A stretch of 64,000 nucleotides of DNA. Origin: Mobula hypostoma (lineage: Eukaryota). This document shows positions 14,318 through 64,000 of the stretch, piece by piece. The notes under the pieces are model-generated. The model made no database searches. It saw nothing but the letters and a program-made list of their open reading frames with translations, and was not told the origin of the DNA. The stretch is from positions 159,156,001-159,220,000 of the forward strand of contig NC_086097.1 in NCBI RefSeq assembly GCF_963921235.1, written 5' to 3'. Numbering within the stretch: position 1 is the first letter of the stretch; each line of letters begins with the position of its first letter. Both the position numbers and the translations under genes were made by a program.

Positions 14318-15698
14318 CTAATAGACTGTGTTAAGGAGTCGGAGCTGAGACTGGATGAACTCCAGATCACTCAGGAGGCTGATAAACAGGACACATAGAG
14401 TGGTCGTAATACCCAAGGTGCAGGATACAGGAAACTGGATGATAGCCAGGAAGGGGAAAGGGGTTAAGGAGCCATTGAAGAGTACCCCTGGGGACATCCC
14501 CCTCAGCAACAGGTATATCACCTTGGATACTGTTGGGGAGATGATCTAACAGAGGAAAGTCACAGTGGTCGGGTCTCTGGCACTGAGTTTGCCTCTGTGA
14601 CTCAGAAGGGATAGAGGGGAGAAGGGGTACACTGTGGTGATAGGGGATACGTTAGTTAGCGGAACAGACAGAAGGTTCCGTGGGCGAGAATGAGATACCC
14701 GGATGACATGTTGCCTCCCGGGTGCCAGAGTCCTGGAAATCTCAGCTCAAGTCCTCAGCATTCTTAAGTTGGAGGACAAGCAGCCAGAAGTCGTGGTCCA
14801 TGTGGGTACCAATGACATGGGCAGGATGAGTGATGAGGTTCTGCATAGGGATTTCAGGGAGTTAGGTGCTAAGTTAAAGGGCAGGACCTCCAGGGTTGTG
14901 ATATCAGGATTGCTACCCATGCCACGTGCTTGGGAGTCCAGAACTAGGAAGATTATACAGTTTAATACGTAGCTAAGGAGTTGGTGTAGAAGGGAGGGCA
15001 TAAGATCTTTGGATCATTGAGCTCTTTCCAGGGAAGGTAGGACCTGTACAGAAAGGAAAACTTGCACCTGAACAGGAGGGAAACTAATATCCTAGCGGGA
15101 AGGTTTGCTAATTCTAGATGGTGGGGTTTAAACTCAAGTTGCAGGGGGCTGGGAACCAGAGCGCCAGAACAGTTAGTGGAGAGGTTGTGGAGGCAGATGT
15201 TGGTAATATCTCAGACAAAATTAGGAAGCAAAAGGCTGAGCATGGTGCAACTTGTGTCCTGAGCTGCACATACTTCAATGCAAGAAGTATCGCAGGAAAG
15301 GTGGATAATAGTGCTAAAGAAGAGGAAGCTGATTTACAAGCAGAGGCAATTAGTGTAGTGAAGAGAGGCCGTTAATAGGGCAAAACTGTAGTCAGCAGGA
15401 TGAAGTGCAACGTAAAAGGTGGACAAAATCGAAAATGGTGAATACAGGACTGAAGGTGTTATATTTGAATGCGCGCAGAATATGGAATACGGTATATGAA
15501 CTTATAGCACAATTGAACTTTGGCCGGTATAATGTTGTAGGCATCACTGAATCACGGCTGAAAGAAGGTTATAGTTGGGTGCTTAAAACCCAAAGATGCA
15601 CATTGAATCGAAAGGGCAGGCAGAAAGGCAGAGGGGGCGGTGTTGCTCTGTTAGTGAAAAATGAAATCAAATCATTAGAAAGAGGTGACGTATGGTTG
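14318..15698 (+). mobile_element. CR1 LINE ORF1 (SGNH esterase) and start of the ORF2 AP endonuclease, decayed
   Basis: 'CCLPGARV...VVVHVGTNDMG' (14703-14972); 'LYLNARRI..VVGITES..GRGGGVALLVK' (15405-15701). Resumes at 20157 after the Gypsy. Confidence 0.9.
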
Positions 15699-15928
15699 TG
15701 ATGCACCTTCAATTACTCCAAAAGACGGGAAGTAGGGTAAATACTGAAAGGCTTTTACTCACAGTAAAATGTGACCTCCATGCTGAGTGTCTGCCCCTGG
15801 ACTGAGGGGGAGGAGCAATGGCGAAATCACCTTTATTCAGGGCTCTGTGGGAGGAGCCACAGGGGCAGTCAGCAGAGGGGCGTGTCCAGACAGTTAACCC
15901 AGTTACAACATATATATGGTTTACCACA
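15699..15928 (-). repeat. 3' LTR of the Gypsy element
   Basis: Direct repeat of 19934-20151 (roughly 90% identity by eye, plus a ~14-bp indel). Reads TGTGGT...ATCA on the minus strand. Confidence 0.95.
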
Positions 15929-15948
15929 TTCACCCCTCCTTTTTTTTT
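15929..15948 (-). other. Polypurine tract
   Basis: Minus strand aaaaaaaaaggaggggtgaa lies immediately before the 3' LTR. Confidence 0.85.
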
Positions 15949-15997: not shown

Positions 15998-17455
15998 TTA
16001 CAGGTCAGGTCTTGGCGGTCGAGTCCGTCGCTGTGATCTACGTAGCACCAGCGGTGATTGCACCAGCGATGGCGGTTGTGCTGGCTCCGGCCTGACTTGA
16101 GGTGTCAGCACGTTAGGCGTCGGTAATCCCTCATGCATGTGTGTCGCGCCCGGTATGGGAGTATTGTGGGGTGTCTGTGTAGGGCTTGGAGTGCGCAGTG
16201 TCTCGTAGGTACATACATTTGTGGGTACGGGGTCAATAGTCACCACGGAGTGTTCAGGGTAGGGGCCCGGAGCTCCTGCAGGCGCCAGGTCGCGGATGGA
16301 GACCGTGTCCTCCCGCCCATCAGGTAAAACCACATAGGCATGCTGGGAGTTCGCATGAAGTAAGTGAACCCTCTCGACCATCGGGGAGTATTTACTGCTC
16401 CTCGCATGTTTCCGGAGCAGCACTGGCCCCGGGGACGTCAGCCAAGATGGTAGGGTGGTTCCAGTGGTCGACTTTCTGGGAAAAGAAAAAAGTCGCTCAT
16501 GAAGGGTGGCATTGGTGGACGTGCATAACAGGGAGCGGATGGAGTGGAGTGCCTCGGGAAGGACCTCCTGCCAGCAGGAGACCGGCAGTCCCTTTGACCT
16601 GAGGGCTAGGAGTGTGGCTTTCCACACCATGGCATTCTCCTTCTCCACCTGTCCATTCCCCCGGAGATTATAGCTCGTGGTCCTACTAGTTGCAATTCCC
16701 TTAGCCAGCAGGTATTGGCGCAGCTCGTCACTCATAAATGAGGACCCTCTGTCACTGTGGATATGGCATGGGTATCCAAACAGAGTGAAGAGCTTGCGCA
16801 GGGCTTTTATAACTGACGTGGTAGTGGTGTCGGGGCAGGGGATGGCGAAGGGGAACCGCGAGTACTCACCGATAACGTTAAGAAAGTACACATTGCGGTC
16901 GGTGGAGGGAAGGGGGCCCTTAAAGTCAACACTCAGTTGCTCAAAGGGGCGGGTGGCCTTGATTAGTTGTGCTTTTTCGGGTCGGTAGAAGTGCGGTGTG
17001 CACTCTGCGCAGACTTGGCAGTCCCTGGTCATCGTCCTGATCTCTTCAAGGGAGGAAGGCAGGTTCCGGGCTTTAACGAAGTGGAAAAACCAGGTGAACA
17101 CTGGTTGGCAAAGATTTACATGTAGGGCGTATAGTCGGTTGATCTGCGCGCTGGCGCACTTTCCCCGGGATAGGGCATTGGCGGGCTTGTTGAGCTTTCC
17201 AGGCCTGTACATGATGTCATAGTTGAAGGTGGAGAGTTCAATTCTCCACCTCAGAATTTTATCGTTTTTGATTTTGCCCCGCTGTTGGTTACTAAACATG
17301 AATGCGACTGAGCGCTGGTCAGTTAGCAGGGTGATCGTTTTGACGGCGAGATAGTGTCTCCAGTGCCTAATAGATTCCACTATGGCCTGAGCCTCTTCCT
17401 CCATCGCGGAGTGCTGAATTTCAGGGCCTTGAAGGGTACGGGAGAAGAACGCCAC
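15998..17455 (-). CDS. Gypsy pol C-terminal part: RNase H end plus integrase (485-aa open frame)
   Basis: 'AFFSRTL..EEEAQAIVESIRHWRHYL..LLTDQRS', 'CQVC', 'LSVDFKGP', 'HSDRGSSF', 'NGQVEKEN'. Confidence 0.9.
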   Translation of the reverse strand: MAFFSRTLQGPEIQHSAMEEEAQAIVESIRHWRHYLAVKTITLLTDQRSVAFMFSNQQRGKIKNDKILRWRIELSTFNYDIMYRPGKLNKPANALSRGKCASAQINRLYALHVNLCQPVFTWFFHFVKARNLPSSLEEIRTMTRDCQVCAECTPHFYRPEKAQLIKATRPFEQLSVDFKGPLPSTDRNVYFLNVIGEYSRFPFAIPCPDTTTTSVIKALRKLFTLFGYPCHIHSDRGSSFMSDELRQYLLAKGIATSRTTSYNLRGNGQVEKENAMVWKATLLALRSKGLPVSCWQEVLPEALHSIRSLLCTSTNATLHERLFSFPRKSTTGTTLPSWLTSPGPVLLRKHARSSKYSPMVERVHLLHANSQHAYVVLPDGREDTVSIRDLAPAGAPGPYPEHSVVTIDPVPTNVCTYETLRTPSPTQTPHNTPIPGATHMHEGLPTPNVLTPQVRPEPAQPPSLVQSPLVLRRSQRRTRPPRPDL

Positions 17456-18340
17456 TGGTCTTCCTGCCTGGTTGAGGGTAGCAGCCAGCGCAAAGTCGGA
17501 GACGTCACTCTCTACTTAGAAGGGAATGGCCTCATCCACCGCATGCATTGCTGCTTTGGCAATGTCCCCTTTTATGCGGCTGAAGGCTGCACGGGCCTTG
17601 GCTTAGAGAGGGAATGTGGTGGACTTGACCAGGGGGCGGGCCTTGTCCGCGTAGTTAGAGACCCATTGGGCGTAATATGAAAAGAAGCCCAGGCACCTTT
17701 TGAGGGCTCTGAGGGTGTTGGGAAGAGGGAGTTCCAACAGGGGGCGCATACAGTCGGGGTCAGGGCCAATGACACCATTCTCCACGACACACCCAAGGAT
17801 AGCAAGTTGGGTGGTCCCGAACACACACTTGTCCTTGTTATAGGTGAGATTGAAAGCTTTGGCCGCTTGGAGAAATTTTTGGAGGTTGTTGTCATGATCC
17901 TGCCGGTCGTGACCGCAGATGGTGATGTTATCCAGATATGGGAACGTGGCCTTCAGTTGGCACTAGTCCACCATCCCATCCATTGCCCTCTGGAAGACTG
18001 ATACACCATTCATGACACCGAAGGGGACGCGCAGGAAGTGTTAAAACTTGCCATCCGCCTCGAAGGCAGTGTAAGGGCGGTCCTCCCGGAGGATGGGGAG
18101 CTGATGGTAAGCGGATTTTAGGTCTATGGTCGAGTACACCTTGTACTGTGCTATCTGATTGACCATATCCGCGATGCAGGGTAGAGGGTACATGTCGAGT
18201 TGCGTGAACCTATTGATGGTCTGGCTATAGTCCACGACCATCCTATTTTTCTCCCCGTTCTGAACAATGACCACCTGCGCCCTCCAAGGACTTGTGCTTG
18301 CCTCAGTGATCCCCTCCCTGAGCAGCCGTTACACCTCTAA
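17456..18340 (-). pseudogene. Gypsy reverse transcriptase / RNase H start, disrupted
   Basis: 'RMVVDYSQTINRFT..YPLP..STIDLKSAYHQ..YTAFEA' (18041-18274, then a stop); FPYLDNITICG at ~17910-17944; 'LKRCLGFFSYYAQW' (17603-17824). Confidence 0.9.
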
Positions 18341-18341
18341 C

Positions 18342-19037
18342 TTAATGAAGGCTCTTGTCCCCCGTGCTGTACCTCCTGCTTTTAGCTGCCACACGTTTAC
18401 AGTCGGGGGTCAGGTTGGCGAACAGCGGTGGGGGAGGGATCTTGAGGGTGGAGAAGCCACAAGAGGTGTCAGTAGTGTGGCAATTGGCATGGTGTTGGGT
18501 GGGATGTGCGGGTCGGTGTGTGTGTGTGGTCAGTAGCAGGGTATGTGACGTATTCCGACAAAACTGGGGATTTACGACAGTGATTGGTGGGAGGGGCCCA
18601 TCATACTCCATTGTCACGCTTTTCAAGTGGCTCTGGAAGTCGAGCCCCAATAGCACAGGGGCACACAGTTGAGGCATGACCAGTAACGTAAAGTCTCGAT
18701 ATTCTGTGCCCTGCACCACTAGCATCTCTACACAACCCCCCCCCCCGGAAGCCATGGCGACCCTCTGACTTACCGGCCATATCATGAGTCCACAATGCTG
18801 CACCGTGGCCGGGTGGATAAAACTCTCCGTGGTGCCCGTGTCAAACAGGCAGCTTGTCCTGCGCCCCTCCACCAGGATGCCCATCATTGACCTTGCGAGC
18901 TGGTGGGGAGCGCTTTGGTCAAGGGTCACTGAGGCCAGGGTTGGTTCGCTGTCTTGGTCCGGCGCGGTGGGATGCCCCATGAGCACCCGTTGGTCGTAGG
19001 CGGTGGGAGGTGGCGCCGACAAGATGGCCGCCCCCAT
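18342..19037 (-). CDS. Gypsy aspartic protease region
   Basis: 'SCLFDTGTTESFI' and 'PVLLGLDFQ'. In a different frame from gag. Confidence 0.85.
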   Translation of the reverse strand: MGAAILSAPPPTAYDQRVLMGHPTAPDQDSEPTLASVTLDQSAPHQLARSMMGILVEGRRTSCLFDTGTTESFIHPATVQHCGLMIWPVSQRVAMASGGGGCVEMLVVQGTEYRDFTLLVMPQLCAPVLLGLDFQSHLKSVTMEYDGPLPPITVVNPQFCRNTSHTLLLTTHTHRPAHPTQHHANCHTTDTSCGFSTLKIPPPPLFANLTPDCKRVAAKSRRYSTGDKSLH

Positions 19038-19908
19038 GTCTCACACGTGGTGGCGGCAGGCAAGATGGCAACCCCCATGTCTTGCATGTGGTGGCAGCGT
19101 GCAGGGAAGATGGCAGCAGGCAAGATGGCGACCCCCATGTCTCGTACGCGGTGCTGCTCGATCCCGCTTGCGTTTTGGACTTATGGACCTTGGCGAAGTG
19201 GCCCTTCTTTCCGCAGCTGGAGCAGGTAGCTTCTCGGGCCGGGCAGCATTTCCGGGGGTGCTTCTCAAGTCCACAGAAGTAGCACTTCGCGGACTCGTAA
19301 CTGGCAGCAGCCGAGGTCGAACCGCAGGTGGGTTGCGGGGTCTGCGGCGCCCATGAGGCCATCGGGGGATTGCATGCCTGGAGAGCCTCAGAGTTATGCA
19401 GAGCGGCCTCCAGCATGTCAGCCAGCTTGATCGCCGAACTTAAGGTAAGATCAGCTTTTTCCAACAGCTGCTGGCGCACATACACTGACCTGGTCCCCGT
19501 GACGAAGGCGTCTCTCACTAGGAGCTCTGCATGCTGTCCTGCCGTCAGCCCCTGGCAATCGCAGGCCCGCACGAGTGTCTGTAGTGCCCGGAAAAACTCA
19601 GCACTTGATTCCCCAGGCCGCTGGTGCTGAGTCGCTAAGTGATGCCGCGCGTAGCCGGTGTTTACCGGCCGCACGTCTTGTCCTTTGAGTGCGCTCATCG
19701 CGCCGTCGTAGCTCGGCCGGTCTCTGATCATCGAGTAGACCCGTGGACTGACCCTGGAGAGTAGAACTCTGCGCTTCGCTGTGGGATCGGTCGCTTCAGT
19801 CGCCTCCAGGTATGATTCGAAGCAGGCCAGCCAGAGTTCGAAAGCGTTTCCAGCTTCAGGTGTTTGCGGGTCGAGGTCTAACTTGTCGGTTCTCAGGGTA
19901 CGTTCCAT
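18919..19908 (-). CDS. Gypsy Gag with two zinc knuckles
   Basis: 'QRPGES..FFRAL', 'VRDAFVTG', 'CYFCGLEKH..CPAREATCSSCGKKGHFAKV'. The ATG lies ~25 nt after the 5' LTR. Confidence 0.9.
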   Translation of the reverse strand: MERTLRTDKLDLDPQTPEAGNAFELWLACFESYLEATEATDPTAKRRVLLSRVSPRVYSMIRDRPSYDGAMSALKGQDVRPVNTGYARHHLATQHQRPGESSAEFFRALQTLVRACDCQGLTAGQHAELLVRDAFVTGTRSVYVRQQLLEKADLTLSSAIKLADMLEAALHNSEALQACNPPMASWAPQTPQPTCGSTSAAASYESAKCYFCGLEKHPRKCCPAREATCSSCGKKGHFAKVHKSKTQAGSSSTAYETWGSPSCLLPSSLHAATTCKTWGLPSCLPPPRVRHGGGHLVGATSHRLRPTGAHGASHRAGPRQRTNPGLSDP

Positions 19909-19917
19909 GCTTTAAAA

Positions 19918-19932
19918 TTACTGCGAATAAAA
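19918..19932 (-). promoter_or_regulatory. PBS-position segment complementary to the element's own LTR (candidate self-priming site)
   Basis: Plus-strand ttactgcgaataaaa (19918-19932) is a 14/15 inverted repeat of ttttatttgcagtaa (19988-20002) inside the 5' LTR. There is no TGG tRNA-type PBS. Confidence 0.65.
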
Positions 19933-19933
19933 T

Positions 19934-20151
19934 TGATACACCATCAATAACTGCAAAAGACTAGAAGTAGGGTAAATACTGAAAGGTTTTTATTTGCAGT
20001 AAAATGTGACCTCCATGCTGAGTGTCTGCCCCTGGACTGAGGAAGAGGAGCAATGGCGAAATCGCCTTTATTCAGGGAACTGTGGGAGGAGCCACAGGGG
20101 CATGTCCAGACCGGTAACCCAGATACACATATATATATATGGATTACCACA
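19934..20151 (-). repeat. 5' LTR of the Gypsy element
   Basis: Direct repeat of 15699-15928. Contains two AATAAA motifs and a TCAGT initiator-like motif on the minus strand. Confidence 0.95.
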
Positions 20152-20156
20152 GGTTG

Positions 20157-21110
20157 TAAGGTGCTGAATCATTGTAGATAGTGCTAAGGAAATGCAAAGG
20201 TAAAAAGACGCTGACATGAGTTGTATACAGGTTCCTAAACAGTAGTAGGAATATGGCCTACAAATTACATCAGGAAACTGAAAACTCATGCCAAAGGGAC
20301 AGTTACAGTAGTCATGCGTGACTTCGATATGGAGGTTGATGCTGGATTCCAGGAGGGAAAATAAGGTTGGTGCTGGGTTCCAGGAGAGGGAATTTGTAGA
20401 ATGCCTACAAGATGGTGTTTTAGAGTAGCTTGTGGTTGAGTTCACTAGAGGATCAGCTATTCTGGATTAGGTATTGTGCATTGAACCAAACTGCTTGGAG
20501 ACCTTAAAGTAAAAGAATCCTTGGGGTAAGTGATCATAATATGATCAAATTCGCCTGAAATTTGAGATGGAGAATCTAAAGTCAGATGCATCAGTATAAT
20601 AGTGGAGTAATTGGAATTACAGAGGCATGAGACAGGAGTTGGCCAGAATTGATTGGAAAAGAACACTGGCAGAGATGATGGCAGAGCAACAATGGCTGGA
20701 ATTTCTGGAAGTAATTCGGAAGGCACAGGATATATATATACATCCCAAAGAGGAAGAAGTATTCTAAAGGTAAGATAACACAACTATGGCTAACAAGGAA
20801 AGTCAAAGCCAACATAAAAGCCAAAAAAAAAGGCATATAATAGAACAAAAATTAGTGGGAATTTAGAGGATTGGGAAGCTTTTAAAAACCAACAGAAGGC
20901 AACTAAAATGTCATTAAGAAGGTAAAAATGGAATACAAAAGTAAGCTCACCAATTATATTAAAAAGGATACCAAAAGTTTCCTTAGATACACGAAGCGTA
21001 AAAGAGAGGAGAGGATGGATATTGGTCCTCTTGAGAGGTAATAATGGGGGCCAAGGAAATGGCAGACGAACTGTATAAGTATTTTGCATCAGTCTTCACT
21101 TTGGAAGACA
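20157..21110 (+). mobile_element. CR1 ORF2 endonuclease/linker, continuing after the Gypsy
   Basis: gacttcgatat.., attctggattaggtattgtgca, agtgatcataatatgat (SDHN motif), ...tattttgcatcagtcttcact. Confidence 0.85.
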
Positions 21111-21112
21111 TT

Positions 21113-23065
21113 AGAATCAGAATCAGAATCAAGTTTATTATCACTGGCATGTGACGTGAAATTTGATAACTTAGCAGCAACAATTCAATGCAATACATAA
21201 TACAGAAGAAAAAATATAATAATAATAATAAATAAATCAATTACTATATATATATTGAACAGATTAAATATCGTGCAAAAAACAGAAATACTATATATTT
21301 AAAAATGTGAGGTAGTGCCAAGGGATCAATGTCCATTTAGGAATCAGATGGCAGAGGGTAAGAAGCTGTTCCTGAATCGCTGAGTGTGTGCCTTCGGCTT
21401 CTGTACCTCCAGCCTGAGAAAAGGGCATGCCCTGGGTGCTGGAGGTCCTTAATAATGGACGATGTCTTTCTGAGACACTGCTCCTTGAAAATGTCCTGTG
21501 TACTTTGTAGGCTATGGAGCTGACTAAATTTGCAACCTTCTGTAGCTTCTTTCAGTCCTGTGCAGTAGCTCGCCCATACCAGACAGTGATGCAGTCTGTC
21601 AGAATGCTCTCCATGATACATCTATAGAAGTTTTTGAGTGTATTTGTTGACATACCAAATCTCTTCAAACTCCTAATGAAGTATAGTCGCTGTTTTGCCT
21701 CCTTTATAACTGCATCGATGTGTTGGGACCAGGTTAGATCCTTAGAGATCTTGACACCCAGGAACTTGAAACTGGTTCTCACTCTCTCCACTTCTCATCC
21801 CTCTATGAAGTTTGGTATGTATTCCTTCATCTTACCCTTCTGAAAGTCCACAATCAGCTCTTTCATCTTACTGACGTTGAGTGCCAGGTTGTTGCCATGG
21901 CACCACTCCACTAGCTGACATATCTCACTCCTGTACACCTCCTTGTCACCACCTGAGATTCTAACAACAATGGCTGTATCATCAGCATACTTATAGATAG
22001 TATTTGAGCTATGCCTAGCCAGACAGTCATGGGTATCTCGAGAGTAGAGCAGTGAGCTAAGCACACATCCCTGTGGAGCACCAGGGTTGATTGTCAGCGA
22101 GGAGGAAATGTTATCACCAATCCACACAGATTATGGTCTTTCAGTGAGGAAGTAGAGGATCCAGTTGCAGAGGGAAGTACAGAGGCCGAGGTTCTGCAGC
22201 TTCTCAATCAGGATTGAGGGAATGTTGGTATTAAATGCTGAGCTATAGACAATGAACAGCATCCTGACATAGGTGTTGGTGTTGTCCAGGTGGTATAAAA
22301 CCATGTGAAGAGCCATTGATATTACATCTGCTGTTGACCTATTGTGGTGATAGGCAAATTGCAATGGGTCCAGGTCCTTGCTGGTCCAGGAGTTCATTAT
22401 AGTCATGACCAACCTCTCAAAGCATTTCATCACTGTAGATGTGAGTGCTACTGGGCGACAGTGATTAAGGCAGCTCACGTTATTCTTCTTAGGAACTGGT
22501 ATAATTGTTACCTTTTTAAAGCAAGTGGGAACTTCCGCCTTTAGCAGTGAGAGGTTGAAAAAGACCTTGAATACTCCCACCAGTTGGTTGGCATATGTAT
22601 TCAGAGCCTTACCAGGTACTCCATCAGGACCTTCCGCCTTGCGAGGGTTCATTCTCTTTAAAGACAACCTAACGTCGGCCTCTGAGACAGATATCATATG
22701 ATCATCAGGTGCAGCAGGGATCTTCACAGCCGTTGAGTTCACCTGGTAGTGAAGCATTGCTACCATTCATGCTATTGGGTTTCACTTTGTAGTAAGTAAT
22801 GTCTTGCAAGCCCTGCCAGAGTTGTCATGCATTTGATGTCGCCTCCAACCTCGCTCAAAGTTGTCTCTTCGCCCTTAAAATACTCGTCCACAAATCATAC
22901 CTGGTTTTCTGGTACAGGCCTGAGTGACCAGACTTGAATGCCACAGACCTAGCTTTCAGCAGATGACGTACCTCCTGGTTCATCTGTGGCTCTTAGTTTG
23001 GGAATGTACAGTAAGTCTCTGTAGGCACACACTCATCCACACAGGTTTTAATGAAGTCAGTATGA
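21113..23065 (-). mobile_element. Rex1/Babar LINE (5'-truncated) with RT, nested in the CR1
   Basis: ORFs 22131-22766 'GPDGVPG..IIPVPKK..PVALTSTVMKCFERL..DPLQFAY', 21795-22127 'GAPQGCVLS..YKYADD', 21552-21791 'FKFLGV'. (GATTCT)n tail at 21113-21130. Confidence 0.92.
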
Positions 23066-23730
23066 AGTTAGCAGCACGCTGGAGCTTTCAGGTGTCAGGT
23101 ATCATGAAGTGTGTGAAGTTACCATTACAGGAGAGAAGGTTCTTGGCGAACTGAAAGATCTGAATGCAAATAAGTCACCTGGACCAGATGGTGTACACCC
23201 TAGAGTTCTGAAAGAGGTGGCTGAAGAGATTGTGGAGGCTTTAGTAATGATCATTCAAGAATCATCAGATTCTTAAATGGTTCTGGAAGAATCTTCAAGA
23301 AGGAAGAGAGGCAAAAGTCAAAAAACTATAGGCCGGCTGTTCTGACCTCAGTGATTGGGAAGATGTTGGAATTGATTATTAAGGATGAGGTCTCAGGCTT
23401 GTTGGAGGCACATGATAAAATAAGCCATAGTCAGTATGGTTTCCTCATGGGAGAACCTTGCCTGACAAATCTGTTGGAGTTAACGGAGAATCACTGATAA
23501 CGGAGAATTGGTTAATGTTGTATACTTGGATTTTCAGAAGACCTCTGACAAAGTCCCACACATGAAGCTGCTAAACAAGCTACAATCCCATGGTATTACA
23601 GGAAAGATTCTAGCATGGATTGGCTGATTAGCAAGATGCAAAGAGTGGGAATAAAGGAAACCTCTTCCGGCTGGCTGCCAAAAACTAGTGGTGTTCCACA
23701 GGGGCCTGTGCTGGTTCTTTTTACGTTATA
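23066..23730 (+). mobile_element. CR1 RT region, continuation
   Basis: aagtcacctggaccagatgg (SPGPDG), tgcctgacaaatctg (CLTNL), 'QRVGI..SGVPQG' (23615-23941 ORF). Confidence 0.85.
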
Positions 23731-26934: not shown

Positions 26935-29900
26935 GTCCATAAGACCATAAGACATGGGAATAGATTTAGGCCACTCATTGCTATGCACTGCTATTCCACC
27001 ATGGCTGATTTATCATCCCTCTCAACCCCATTCTCCTGCCATCTCCCCGTAACATTTGATGACCTGACTAATCAAGATCTATCAACCTCTGCTTTGAATA
27101 TACTCATGACTTGGCCTTCACAGTTGTCCATGGCAATGAACTCCAGAAATTCACTACTGCCTGACTAAAGAAATTCTTTCTCTACTCTATTCTAAATGGA
27201 TACCCCTCAATTCTGAGGCTGTGCCCTCTGGTCCTGGACTCACCCACTATAGAAAACATCCTCTCCGCATAACTTTGTGTAGGCTTTTCAATATTCGATA
27301 GGTTTCAATGAGAGTCCCCTTCATTTATCTGAACTCCAGCAAGTACAGGCCAATAGAAATAAAACGCTTTCGTTCCCAGAATAATTATCGTGAAGTTCCT
27401 CTGGACCCTCTCCAAGGCCAGCACATCTTTTCTTAGATAAGGGACCCAAAACTGCTCATAATACTCCATGTGCTGTTAGACCAATGCTTATAAGGCCCCA
27501 GCAGCACTTTCTTGCTCTTATATTTTAGTTCTCTTGAAATGAATACTCACATTGCATTTGCCTCCCCTATCAGTGACTGAAGCTGCAAGTTAACCTTTAG
27601 GAAATCTGGCACAAGGACTCTCAACTCCCCTTGCACCTCTGAATTTTGAATTTAATTCCTGTTTAAAAAATACGCTTTTATACCTTTTATCATAGTGCAT
27701 GACCATACACCACCCTACACTAAATTTCATCTGCCACTAGTTTGCCTATTCTCTCAATCTGTCCCAGTCCTGCAGACTCCCTTCTTCCTCAATACTACCT
27801 GCCCCTCTACCTATCTTTGTATCATCTGCAAACTTGGTCATAAAGCCATCAATTCCTTTATACAAATCTTTGAATAAAATGTGAAAAGAAGCGGTCCCAA
27901 TACAAACCCCTGAGGAACACGATACCAGCAGCCAACCAGAATAGGCCTGCATTATTCCAACTCTTTGCCACCTGCAAATCAGCCAATCTTCTTTCCATGC
28001 TAGAATAATACCATGTGTTCTTATCTTGCTAAGCAGCCTCATGCATGGTACCTTGTCAAAGGCCTTTTGAAAAACTAAGTAATCAACATCCACTAACTCT
28101 CCTTTGTTTATCTTATATAGATATAGAATAGTACAGCACAGTACAGGCCCTTCGGCCCACAATGTTGTGCCCTCAAACCCCGCCTCCCATATAAGCCCCC
28201 ACCTTAAATTCCTCCATATACCTGTCTAGTAGTCTCTTAAACTTCTTAAAGTGTATCTGCCTCCACCACTGACTCAGGCAGTGCATTCCACGTACCAACC
28301 ACTCTGAGTAAAAAACCTTCCTCTAATATCCCCCTTGAACTTCCCACCCTTTATGTTAAAGCCATGTCCTCTTGTATTGAGCAGTGGTTCCCTGGAGAAG
28401 AGGCGCTGGCTATCCACTCTATCTATTCCTCTTATTATCTTGTACACCTCTACCATGTCTCCTCCCATCCTCCTTCTCTCCAAAGAGTAAAGTCCTAGCT
28501 CCCTTAATCTCTGATCATAATGCATACTCTCTAAACCAGGCAGCATCTTGGTAAATCTCCTCTGTACCCTTTCCAATGCTTCCACATCCTTACCTGTTAT
28601 TTCCTCAAAGAATTACAGCAGATATGTTAGGTAAGATTTTCCCTCAATGGAAACCCTGCTAACTTTGGCCTATTTTATCATGTGCCTCCAAGTACTCCTA
28701 AAACTCATCCAATCGATTCCAACATCATCCTAACCACTGAAGTCAAGCTAACTGACCTATAATTTGCTTTCCTATGCCTCCATCTCTTCTTAAATAATGG
28801 AATGACATTTGCAATTTTCAGTCCTCTGGAACCAATCCAGAATCAGTGATTCTTGAAAGATTATTTCTAATGCCCCCACAATCTCTTTAGCTACCTCTGG
28901 GTGTAATCCATTGGATCCAGGTAATTTATTTATCATCAGAAAATTCAGCTTCCTAAGCACCTTCTCCTTAGTAATAGCAACTACCCTTGACACTCTCGAA
29001 TTGTGGGCATTCTGCTAGTGTCTTCCATAGTGAAGACTGATGGAAAGTACATACCAAGTTTGTCCATCGTTTCTTTGTCCCCCATTACTACCTTTCCAGC
29101 GCCATTTTCCAGCAGTCCAATACCTACTCTTGCCTCTCTTTTACTCTTTATGCATCTGAAAAAAAAAACATTTGGAATGCTCTTTGATATTTTTGGCTAG
29201 CTTACCTTCATAGTTTACCTTTCTCTCCTTATGGTTTTATTAATTGCTTTTTGTTGTTTATTAAAAGCTTCCCAGTCCTCTAACTTCCCACTATTTTTTT
29301 GCTAGATTATGTGCTCTCTCTTTTGCTTTTGTGCTATCTTACACTTTCCTTGTCACCCATAGATTCTTCATCCTCCCTTTAGAACGCTTATTCAACTTTG
29401 GGATGTATTTGTTTTGCGGCTTTCAGATTGTCCCAAGAAACTCCAGCTATTACTATTCTGCCATCATCTCCGGTAGTGTCCCCTTCCAATCAAATTTGGC
29501 CAGCTCCTTTCTCAAGCCTCTTTACTTCCCTTTGCTTCACAGTAACACTGATACATCTGGCTCTATCTCCTCCCTCTCAAACTGTAGGGTGAATTATATC
29601 ATATTCTGATCATTGATTCCTAGAGGTTCCTTTGCCTTAAGCTCCCTTATCAAACCTAGTTCATTACACAATATCCAATCTCGAATTTCCTTTCTTCTAG
29701 TGGGCTCAACCAAATGCTGTTCTAAAAAGCTGACTTACAGGCATTCTACAAATTCCCTCTCTTTGGCCCCAGAACCATCCTGATTTTTCTAATCTACCTG
29801 CATATTGAAATCCCCCTTGACTATTGTAACATTGCCCTTATTACATGCCTTTTCTATTTCCCATTGAAATTTATATCCCACATCCTTGCCTCTGTTCAGA

Positions 29901-33010: not shown

Positions 33011-33780
33011 AGTAAATATACAGCAGATGCAAATTTAGATCATATGACCTAAAGACATAGGAGTAGAAATAAGCTATTTGACCCATTGAGTCTGCTTCGT
33101 GGTCCGTCATGGCTGATTATTATCCTTCTCATCCCCATTCTTCTTGTAACATTTGAAACCCTGTTTAATCAAGAACTTACCAACTGCTGCCTTAAATATG
33201 CCAAATGACTTAGCCTGCTTAGCCATCTATGGCAATGAATTCCACAGATTCAGCAATCTCTGGTGAAAGAAATCTTTCCTCATCTCTGTTCTAAGTGGAC
33301 ATTCCTCTATTTTGAGGCTGTACCCCCCGGACCTACACTCCCACACTACAGGAAACATCCTCTCCACATCCACTCCATCTAGGACTTTCAATATTCAATA
33401 GGTTTCAATGAGATTCACCCTCATTCTTCTGAACTGCAGCAAGTACAGGCCCAGAGCCATCAAACGCTCCTCTTATGTAAACTCTTTCATTCCTGGGATC
33501 ATTCTCGTGAACCTCCTCTGGACTCTCTCCAATGCCAGCACATCTTTTCTTAGATACGGGGCCCAAAACTACTCACAAGATTCCAATGTACGGTTTGACC
33601 AGTGCCTTATAAAGCCTCAGCCTTTGCAGAAGTCCTCTGGAAATGAATGCTAACATTGCATCTGCCTTCCCTACCACCAACTCAACCAGCAAGTTACAAG
33701 GAATCCTGCACAAGGGCTCTCAAGTCTTTTTGCACCTCTGATTTTTGAATGTTCTCCCCATTTAGAAAGTAGCCTGTGCC

Positions 33781-41485: not shown

Positions 41486-42176
41486 TGGCTCTGGAACTCC
41501 TGCTCTCTGTGATTTTTATAAAAGACTTGAATGAGGAAGTGGAAGGATGTGTTAGTAAGTTTAAACATGATACAAATGTTGGTAGTGGTGTGGAAAGTGC
41601 AGAAGGTCGTTTTAGCGTACAACAGGAAAATCATGGGCTGAGAGATGGCAGATGGAATTCAATCCAGAAAAGGGAGAAGTGGTACTCATTGGAAGGGCCA
41701 AGTGGATGGCAGAGCATGAAGTTAACAGTAGGATTCTGTGCAGTGAGGAGAAAGAAAGGGGCCTTGAGGTCAATGTAGCTGCATTTACTAGCAGGACAAA
41801 AATTGAATAAGACCAATGAAAGAATGTTATCCTGGCATTAATCTTGGCTGTCATATCCCACATTTGGAGGTTTTGACTTCAAGTCTCACTCCAGAGACCT
41901 GAGCAAAAATAAATCTAGACTGACTAGTAAGTGGATGACTAAATTGCCTGAATTTTAAAACATATCCACCACAGCACTTCCAGGTTGATATAAAAGATTA
42001 CATAGCATTATTCTTAGGGGCAAATTAGGGTTGCAAATCGCAGGAGACCAGTACAACTTTCAGGTACTTTTTGTTCAGAATGCAATGTCTGTAGACTCAT
42101 AGCAAAGAATGCCATGCCCATGCTCCATTAGCCTTCATTACAATTTATCCATTCCCTGCTGGCTATATCAATGATC

Positions 42177-43110
42177 TAGTTAATAATGTGGTAAATTGGA
42201 TCAGCAAGTTTGCTGATGACACTAAGATTGGAGGTGTTGTGGAAAGCGAGGAAGGTTTTCAAAGCTTGCAGTGGGATCTGGACCAACTGGAAAAATGGGC
42301 CAGAAGATGGCAGATGGAATTTAATGCAGCCAAGTGTGAGGTGTTGCATTTTGGATGGACAAATCAAGGTAGGACATACACAGTAAATGGTAGGGTGCTA
42401 AGCAGTGTGGAGGAACAAAGAGATCTGGGAGTTCAGATACATAATTCCCTGAAAGTGGTGTCACATGTAGACAGGGTTGTAAAGAAGGCTTTTGGCATCC
42501 TGGCATTCATAAATCAAAGTATTGAGTATAGGAGTTGGGATGTAATGGGGAGGTTGTATAAGACATTGGTGAGGCCAAATTTGGAGCATTGTGTACAGTT
42601 CTGGTCACCTAACTATAGGAAGGATATTCGTAGGATTGAAAGAGTGCAGAGAAGATTTACTAGGACGTTGCCGGGTCTTCAGGAGTTAAGTTACAGGGAA
42701 AGGTTGAACAGGTTAGGACTTTATTCCTTGGAGCATAGAAGAATGAGGGGAAATTTGATAGAGGTTTACAAAATTATGAGGTGTATAGACAGAGTAAATG
42801 TGAATAGGCTCTTTCCACTTAGATGATGAGAGATAAATATGAGAGGACATGGCTTTAGGGTGAAAGGGGAAAGGTTTAGGGGGAACGTTAGCCGGAACTT
42901 CTTCACTCAGAGAGTGGTGGGAGTGTGGAACGAGCTGCCATCTGACGTGGTAAATGCGGGCTCACTCTTAAGTTTTAAGAATAAGTTGGACAGGTACATG
43001 GATGGGAGAGGTCTGGAGGGTTATGGACTGGATGCAGGTCAATGGGACTAGCGGAATAATGTTCCGGCACAGACTAGAAGGGCCTGTTTTCTGTGCTGTA
43101 GTGTTCTATG
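42177..43110 (+). mobile_element. CR1/HER1-like LINE, 5'-truncated, well preserved
   Basis: ORF 42188-42826 (212 aa) 'SKFADDTKIGG..LVRPNLEHCVQFWSP..ERVQRRFT', then 42839-43051. Confidence 0.93.
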
Positions 43111-62083: not shown

Positions 62084-62510
62084 TTAGCAGAAGTTAGAGA
62101 AGTCAATGTTCATGCCATCAGGTTGGAGGCTACCCAGACGGAATATAAGGTGTTGTTCCTCCAACCTGAGTGTGGCTTCATCTTTACAGTAGAGGAGGCC
62201 GTGGATAGACATGTCAGAATGGGAATGGGATGTGGAATTAAAATGTGTGGTCACTGGGAGATCCTGCTTTCTCTGGCGGACAGAGCGTAGGTGTTCAGCA
62301 AAACGATCTCCCAGTCTGCGTCGGGTCTCGCCAATATATAGAAGACCACATCGGGAGCACCGGACGCGGTATATCACCCCAGCCGACTCACAGGTGAAGT
62401 GTCGCCTCACCTGGAAGGACTGTCTGGGGCCCTGAATGGTGGTAAGGGAGGAAGTGTAAGGGCATGTGTAGCACTTGTTTCGCTTACAAGGATAAGTGCC
62501 AGGAGAGAGA
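62084..62510 (-). CDS. PLE GIY-YIG endonuclease domain
   Basis: 'GTYPCKRNKCYTCPY...VIYRVRCSRCGLLYIGETRRRLGDRFAEH..HF..EEQHLIFRLGSLQPDGMN'. Confidence 0.9.
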
Positions 62511-63020
62511 TCACACCTCGCACTTCCCATTTCTACCTCCTACCCAAGATCCACAAACCTGCCTGTCCTGGCAGACCTATTGTCTCAGCTTGCTCCTGCC
62601 CCACCGAACTTGTTTCTGCATACCTCGACATGGTTTTGTCCCCCCTTGTTCAATCCCTTCCTACCTATGTTCGTGACACTTCTCACGCTCTTAAACTTTT
62701 CGATGATTCTAAGTTCCCTGGCCCCCACCACTTTATTTTCACCATGGATGTCCAGTCCCTATATACTTCCATCCCCCATCAGGAAGGTCTCAAAGCTCTC
62801 CACAACTTTTTGGATTCCAGACCTAATCAGTTCCCCTCTACCTCCACTCTGCTCCGTCTAGTGGAATTAGTCCTTACTCTTAATAATTTCTCCTTTGGCT
62901 CCTCCCACTTCCAGCAAACTAAAGGTGTAGCTATGGGCACCCATGTGGGTCCTAGCTATGCCTGCCTTTTTGTTGGCTTTGTGGAACGATCTATGTTCCA
63001 AACCTATTCTGGTATCGGTC
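62511..63020 (+). pseudogene. Inverted PLE RT fragment
   Basis: 'PRTSHFYLLPKIHKP..PGRPIVS..MDVQSLYTSIP..GVAMG' (62399-63127 ORF). Confidence 0.9.
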
Positions 63021-63029
63021 TCCCACATT

Positions 63030-64000
63030 TCCCCCACCTGGAGGCTGGTGGGGTGGTAGGTGAGGACCAGGGGAACCCTATTCCTAGTGGGATGACGGGA
63101 GGATGGAGTGAGAGCAGATGTGCGTGAAATGGGGGAGATGCGTTTAAGAGCAGAGTTGATGGTGGAGGAAGGGAAACCCCTTTCTTTAAAAAAGGAGGAC
63201 ATCTCCTCCTCGTCCTGGAATGAAAAGCCTCATCCTGAGAGCAGATGCGGCGGAAACGGAGGAATTGCGAGAAGGGGATGGCATTTTTGCAAGAGACAGG
63301 GTGAGAAGAGGAATAGTCCAGATAGCTGTGAGAGTCAGTAGGCTTATAGTAGACATCAGTAGATAAGCTGTCTCCAGAGGTAGAGACAGAAAGAACTAGA
63401 AAGGGGAGGGAGGTGTTGGAAATGGACCAGGTAAACTTGAGGGCAGGGTGAAAGTTGGAGGCAAAGTCAATGAAGTCAACGAGCTCAGCATGCGTGCAGG
63501 AAGCAGCGCCAATGCAGTCGTCGATGTAGCGAAGGAAAAGTGGGGGACAGATACCAGAATAGGCACGGAACATAGATTGTTCCACAAACCCAACAAAAAG
63601 GCAGGCATAGTTAGGACCCATACGGGTGCCCATAGCTACACCTTTAGTTTGGAGGAAGTGGGAGGAGCCAAAGGAGAAATTATTAAGAGTAAGGACTAAT
63701 TCCACTAGACGGAGCAGAGTGGTGGTAGAGGGGAACTGATTAGGTCTGGAATCCAAAAAGAAGCGTAGAGCTTTGAGACCTTCCTGATGGGGGATGGAAG
63801 TATATAGGGACTGGACATCCATGGTGAAAATAAGGCGGTGGGGGCCAGGGAACTTAAAATCATCGAAAAGCTTAAGAGCGTGAGAAGAGTCACGAACATA
63901 GGTAGGAAGGGATTGAACAAGGGGGGATAAAACCGTGTCGAGGTATTCAGAAACGAGTTCGGTGGGGCAGGAGCAAGCTGAGACAATAGGTTGGCCAGGA
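63030..64000 (-). pseudogene. PLE reverse transcriptase (core motifs present, frameshift near the C-terminus)
   Basis: 'MDVQSLYTSIP', 'GVAMGTRMGP', 'FLRYIDD', 'YYKPTDSHSYL'; then 'FFKERGFP..RVPLVLTYHP' in another frame. Confidence 0.92.

Follow-up and report, generated by a model that had tools for sequence, protein, structure and literature searches.

How does a Ty3/Gypsy retrotransposon start reverse transcription when no tRNA-type primer site follows its 5′ LTR? The question is raised by an element in the genome of Mobula hypostoma, within a stretch of 64,000 nucleotides (hereafter the window; contig NC_086097.1, positions 159,156,001 to 159,220,000). On the minus strand of the window, from 20151 to 15699, lies a decayed 4,453-bp LTR retrotransposon whose two LTRs are 90.7% identical, with the domain order gag-PR-RT-RNase H-IN inside TG...CA LTRs, together with a polypurine tract (PPT) and a target-site duplication (TSD), as expected of Ty3/Gypsy. 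Its features, in window coordinates, are as follows.

20152-20156, minus strand: left copy of the 5-bp TSD, CAACC
19934-20151, minus strand: 5′ LTR, 218 nt, TG...CA
20066-20072, minus strand: AATAAAG in the window copy, at the site equivalent to the TATAAAG box of the sister subfamily
20036-20040, minus strand: initiator-like TCAGT, predicted +1 the A at 20038, from the 31-nt TATA-to-A spacing of the sister subfamily and the truncated fold-back arms that cluster there
19988-20002, minus strand: LTR segment pairing with the primer site, +37..+51, with AATAAA; predicted 3′ end of the self-primer
19934-19987, minus strand: stem-loop led by RCC, from the primer strand to the LTR end, with the predicted cut at 19988/19987 (from folding and the RCC of 18/19 primer groups)
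19918-19932, minus strand: 15-nt primer-binding site, no TGG, 1 base past the LTR end
18919-19908, minus strand: part of gag with two zinc knuckles, the frame broken downstream in the window copy
18342-19040, minus strand: aspartyl protease frame
17516-18343, minus strand: reverse transcriptase (YLDN), with in-frame stops
15998-17515, minus strand: RNase H and integrase, no chromodomain
15933-15948, minus strand: polypurine tract
15699-15928, minus strand: 3′ LTR, 230 nt, TG...CA
15694-15698, minus strand: right copy of the TSD, CAACC

Stops and frameshifts interrupt the coding region of the window copy. Two sibling copies that we fetched each carry one frame of 1,238-1,286 codons, indicating that gag-pol is a single frame. 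The best solved relative of the reverse transcriptase (RT) is that of Ty3, and a literature search for its YLDN motif returned no relevant match. Gag has conserved cysteines at C210, C213, C223, C230 and C233, with a weak match to zf-CCHC, and the gag-protease linker (19010-19153) contains three repeats of ~43 nt. Much of the element's flank in the window is made of decayed LINE-like copies (20358-23678 versus 27928-29787; 27042-27672 versus 33139-33771; 42095-42826; 62342-63127), with RVT_1 matches at 22131-22766, 42095-42826 and 62342-63127.

Directly past the 5′ LTR, the element reads one A (19933), TTTTATTCGCAGTAA (19932-19918), 9 nt and the gag ATG (19908), which bears out the preliminary description in its claim of a short leader lacking a TGG primer site. 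That description had also proposed that the 15-mer is complementary to the element's own LTR about 55 nt upstream, over an AATAAA, and we recovered the same pairing: TTTTATTCGCAGTAA matches TTACTGCAAATAAAA (20002-19988) at 14/15 positions, the single mismatch falls on a CpG position, and the 3′ end of TTACTGCAAATAAAA lies 54 nt upstream of the LTR end. The 3′ LTR version can likewise pair, through 13 Watson-Crick and 2 G-U pairs, as had been anticipated. A 158-nt RNA of the window copy is about as stable as its shuffles (z -0.20); in three less decayed copies the RNA does beat its shuffles (z -2.0 to -3.4), and the bases of the helix pair with a probability close to 1.

A DNA search of the genome yielded 30 sibling loci, the window copy included; an indel kept one of them from being scored. 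In the other 29, the 15-mer pairs at all 15 positions in 11, at 14 in 12, at 13 in four and at 12 in two, and a TGG site was found in none of the sibling loci of the window's subfamily. Helix position 8 covaries, with G-C in nine copies, T-A in nine, T-C in four and G-A in one (Fisher p 0.01 once six rows with other types are set aside, the copies being related rather than independent). A second subfamily (28/30 loci) pairs GTACAGCGAATAAAA with TTTTATTCGCTGTAC, with two further pairs altered on both strands. As a control, ten elements of this genome that do bear a TGG gave self-pairing scores of only 5-7. The family is large: in this 3.5-Gb genome, first-look candidates numbered 3,634 and 10,971, which are not copy numbers. 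At three loci (L073, L074 and L079) the covarying position differs between the 5′ and 3′ LTRs, suggesting recombination between co-packaged subfamilies.

To look beyond this genome, we scanned metagenome contigs with a full-length alignment as query, the Gag alignment being too variable, and obtained 79 loci; viral contigs scanned yielded no relative. The helix count is restricted to the 44 loci that include the start of Gag. A helix of 11-19 bp is present in 37 of them, one extending further with mismatches, and in 37/37 it begins exactly 1 nt past the CA of the LTR end, while its sequence is family-specific. The helices scored 10-19, where shuffles averaged about 5-7, and 36/37 beat all 60 shuffles, a null for which fewer candidate ends were tried than in the real search. 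These 37 loci represent 21 families at 80% identity and 24 at 90%, and comparison of the LTR end with the 3′ LTR confirmed it in 16, disagreed or was cut short in six and could not be made in 15. The seven loci without a helix comprise two truncated ones, two decayed copies of a helix-bearing family and three that are unexplained.

When the relatives are sorted into 19 groups by primer sequence, the pairing segment ends in AAA in 17/19, RCC follows in 18/19, a stem opens at that base in 16/19, and TGG occurs in 0/19. One clade member, L133, keeps the helix and lacks the AAA/RCC motif. Of the three objections that the preliminary description had raised against itself, two did not hold, namely a TGG site deleted here and kept elsewhere and a complementarity peculiar to this copy: no copy or relative examined carries a TGG, and the pairing is kept among relatives, with covariation of its two strands. 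Judged from sequence, the helix is maintained by selection, since both strands change together in two subfamilies and the relatives have family-specific helices of their own. Chance pairing and a decayed or deleted TGG site were considered and are ruled out by the sibling pairing, the second subfamily and the relatives' helices.

The conserved site could still be occupied by a tRNA half or another host small RNA, the match to the LTR being incidental. Plant Ty1/copia lineages use half-tRNA primers (PMC6317226), and TTTTACTGCGAATAAAA resembles an anticodon stem-loop. In a comparison of the primer site with 39 tRNA calls, a small set spanning only 4 isotypes from 50 loci, the best intron-less match was 7-10 nt with G-U allowed; within this set the third objection of the preliminary description, a match of the 15-mer to a tRNA or tRNA fragment, did not hold either. 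The site, however, differs by family and always tracks that family's own LTR, a pattern that no single unvarying host RNA could produce. Given the covariation, a host tRNA primer is disfavoured, and we regard host-RNA priming as extremely improbable.

If the primer comes from the element itself, the position of the pairing segment within the RNA becomes important. The A of TCAGT at 20038 would put the segment at +37..+51, in keeping with the earlier suggestion that the partner lies downstream of this motif in a geometry unlike that of Tf1. The second subfamily has a TATAAAG box 31 nt upstream of the same A, the textbook spacing between TATA box and initiator, and this spacing places the segment at the predicted +37..+51. 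Counting against the predicted start, AATAAAG replaces the TATA box in the window subfamily. This AATAAAG (20072-20066, minus strand) is also a second poly(A)-like hexamer of that subfamily, located in U3. Elsewhere in U3, the stretch 15870-15855 is by eye an almost perfect complement of 20038-20025 (both minus strand), where the RNA is predicted to begin, and end-to-end pairing is possible.

The genome also holds molecules in which the R leader is joined to minus-strand U5. A search for such fold-back junctions found 72 (46 of them exact) against 0 in a backwards control, and all 72 loci were retrieved for analysis of their arms. Both arms reach the LTR start in 38/72, and 28 of these 38 are flanked by a 5-bp TSD (at least 4/5 positions), perfect in 24. 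TSDs around palindromic inserts indicate that the palindromes were made before integration and not by host replication. The inserts (L194-L265), of ~405 bp and composed of a partial LTR plus an inverted LTR between 5-bp TSDs, constitute an integrase-made class of mini-element. Any plus strand with the primer site at its end could fold back to the same junction, which alone is evidence only that this site was copied into the plus strand. Double template switches at short homologies occur at four fold-back loci, so short homologies do rearrange these molecules.

The arm ends are more informative about the primer. Seven forward arms are truly truncated, beginning at about -4/-2, -1, +2, +2, +16, +21 and +25, with 0 within U3; the fraction that falls in -4..+2, 4/7 (P about 1e-4 for uniform ends), rests on these seven loci after exclusion of L218, L221, L245 and L254, which have internal deletions or an insertion. 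Among 20 incomplete inverted arms, three end at LTR positions 171-175, where the cut is predicted (P 0.017, weak). The fold-back arms suggest a primer that keeps its 36-nt leader.

These data also bear on self-priming by some other piece of the element's RNA, such as a short internal fragment freed by cutting on both sides, the 3′ repeat or a short transcript acting in trans. The identical segment is indeed present in the 3′ repeat, 3/7 truncated arms have their first base between +16 and about +25 and not at +1, and arms ending at +1 could equally reflect copying of the 5′ end of uncut RNA. Set against this are the clustering of the other four arms around the predicted start with none ending in U3, the near-certain pairing of the helix in cis, and the consideration that a polyadenylated 3′ repeat would have no 3′ end at this base unless it were cut. 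We consider such an alternative primer improbable.

Our preferred reading, which we hold to be very likely, is that the clade of the window element primes itself with its own 5′ RNA fragment of ~51 nt, cut behind AATAAAA. Transcription would begin at the initiator, +37..+51 would anneal to the primer site, and the RNA would be cut after ...AAA, ahead of RCC. Both the cut and the enzyme behind it are what we infer, RNase H being the candidate nuclease by analogy with Tf1. The 3′ end of the primer would then be extended over the spacer base and U5, and the short cDNA would be transferred to the 3′ repeat through the roughly 20-25 nt of repeat that remain. The primer would often be retained and then copied by the plus strand, which, carrying the copied primer, could fold back and give rise to an integrated palindrome of ~405 bp. 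In families whose segment includes a poly(A) hexamer, that signal in the 5′ LTR would be masked by the helix as well.

This last feature admits a reading in which the helix serves regulation, as a hairpin that conceals the poly(A) signal of the 5′ LTR, as the poly(A) hairpin of HIV-1 does, and something else primes. The window segment includes AATAAA, AATAAA or ATTAAA lies inside the pairing segment of 11/19 primer groups, and the helix partner is present only at the RNA 5′ end. Neither hexamer occurs in the segment of the remaining 8/19 groups, however, and the one-base spacing in 37/37 relatives is explained by priming and not by occlusion. No alternative primer site is present, and fold-back inserts need plus-strand copying of the primer-site sequence. 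A purely regulatory hairpin is thus quite improbable to us. Occluding the poly(A) signal may be an additional role of the helix, alongside priming; it cannot be the sole one, given the eight groups without the hexamer and a spacer that is one base long throughout.

Where does the clade belong? The closest proteins are from rays, followed by sharks, crustaceans, a snail, corals and anemones, a damselfly and nematodes. Chromo and SH3_Tf2-1 gave no match in 5/5 full-length clade proteins, consistent with the earlier remark that no chromodomain was visible, and both are present in the Sushi-like L167. In a quick maximum-likelihood tree of 74 RT rows (94 before removal of near-duplicates) with three outgroups, the window element falls in a clade of 56 rows (SH-aLRT 100), apart from six Sushi-like rows, a Gmr1-like group and one other TGG-bearing group; long branches meet in this tree, its root is undecided and Tf1 is absent from it, so that a sister relation to chromoviruses is compatible with it. 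On these grounds the clade, although it appears to work like Tf1, falls outside the Tf1/Sushi chromoviruses, which supports the proposal of a separate self-priming lineage. The Gmr1-like loci (L178, L179, L183, L184, L190 and L191) have a SCAN domain, integrase ahead of RT and TGG sites, and one of them carries a frame of 1,551 codons.

A Mag-like Gag with a double knuckle had been proposed as well, and here the claim stands in part: two knuckles are conserved, and it is for those knuckles that the likeness to Mag is shown. The Mag lineage has two CCHC knuckles in Gag, which the clade shares, and a tRNA-type primer site starting with TGG, which the clade lacks. Cigr-1 reportedly has short LTRs, one frame of ~1,200 codons and a SURL-like Gag. 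By this description, and with a Biomphalaria Gag among our protein matches, the Cigr-1 clade is a candidate relative. PMC6238403 places this clade (Ciona, molluscs) under the Mag lineage and reports it in Biomphalaria.

Among known self-primed systems, Tf1/Tf2 of Schizosaccharomyces pombe and Tj1 of S. japonicus are, like the clade, Ty3/Gypsy elements with no tRNA site and a site complementary to their own RNA. Tf1 pairs its first 11 bases, whereas the clade pairs 11-19 bases at about +37..+51 (predicted), behind a leader of ~36 nt; unlike Tf1, it has a conserved TTT/AAA end, an RCC hairpin, no chromodomain and animal hosts. Tf1 RNase H cleaves between bases 11 and 12 (PMC7175516), and Tf1 cDNA frequently keeps the primer site as a single-stranded end (PMC11042837). 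In the M. hypostoma genome, Sushi-like chromoviruses (L166-L177) also lack TGG, and 2/3 tested (L169 and L172) have a 10-bp self-match. This match lies 241-342 nt upstream of the LTR end, versus 23-86 nt in the clade, and the Sushi-like elements differ further in their chromodomain (L167), their motif, their separate RT clade and an identity to the clade of about 24-32%. Self-priming is predicted from sequence for TAR copia (Houba, Osr-1), Tcn1 and the hairpin site of fungal GalEa (PMC6317226; PMC6934838), which implies that the trait arose more than once. TAR copia, Tcn1 and fungal GalEa belong to a different superfamily or lineage from the clade, and the hairpin site of GalEa is entirely within the internal region, unlike the LTR partner found here.

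In the openly available papers searched on self-priming and clade names, self-priming is described for Tf1/Sushi, Tj1, Tcn1 and TAR copia, and not for the clade. Some animal Gypsy families are reportedly called self-primed in Repbase entries. As read from its sequences, the complementarity is real, and the probable self-priming of the clade would be a variant of a known mechanism with a different primer design; the clade may already be catalogued in Repbase. A more ambitious account we put forward only tentatively, leaning slightly against it as a whole: an animal-wide Gypsy clade, so far unpublished, with self-priming independent of the chromoviruses, a capped primer of ~50 nt cut at an AAA/RCC junction of helix and hairpin, one RNA fold that both yields the primer and masks the poly(A) signal at the 5′ end, and palindromic mini-elements, made by integrase, in which the intermediate of priming is preserved as a fossil.

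Self-priming is proven in Tf1 and usually associated with chromoviruses. The fold-back inserts would be a genomic record of an intermediate of reverse transcription, and an RNA of ~135 nt makes the predicted cleavage step open to direct test. A self-primed clade would also explain why LTR annotation that relies on the primer site misses or misclassifies such elements. If our reading is true, this is a second widespread Gypsy clade of animals that primes itself, with another primer design, implying repeated loss of dependence on tRNA, and such elements would be predicted to escape silencing by tRNA fragments.
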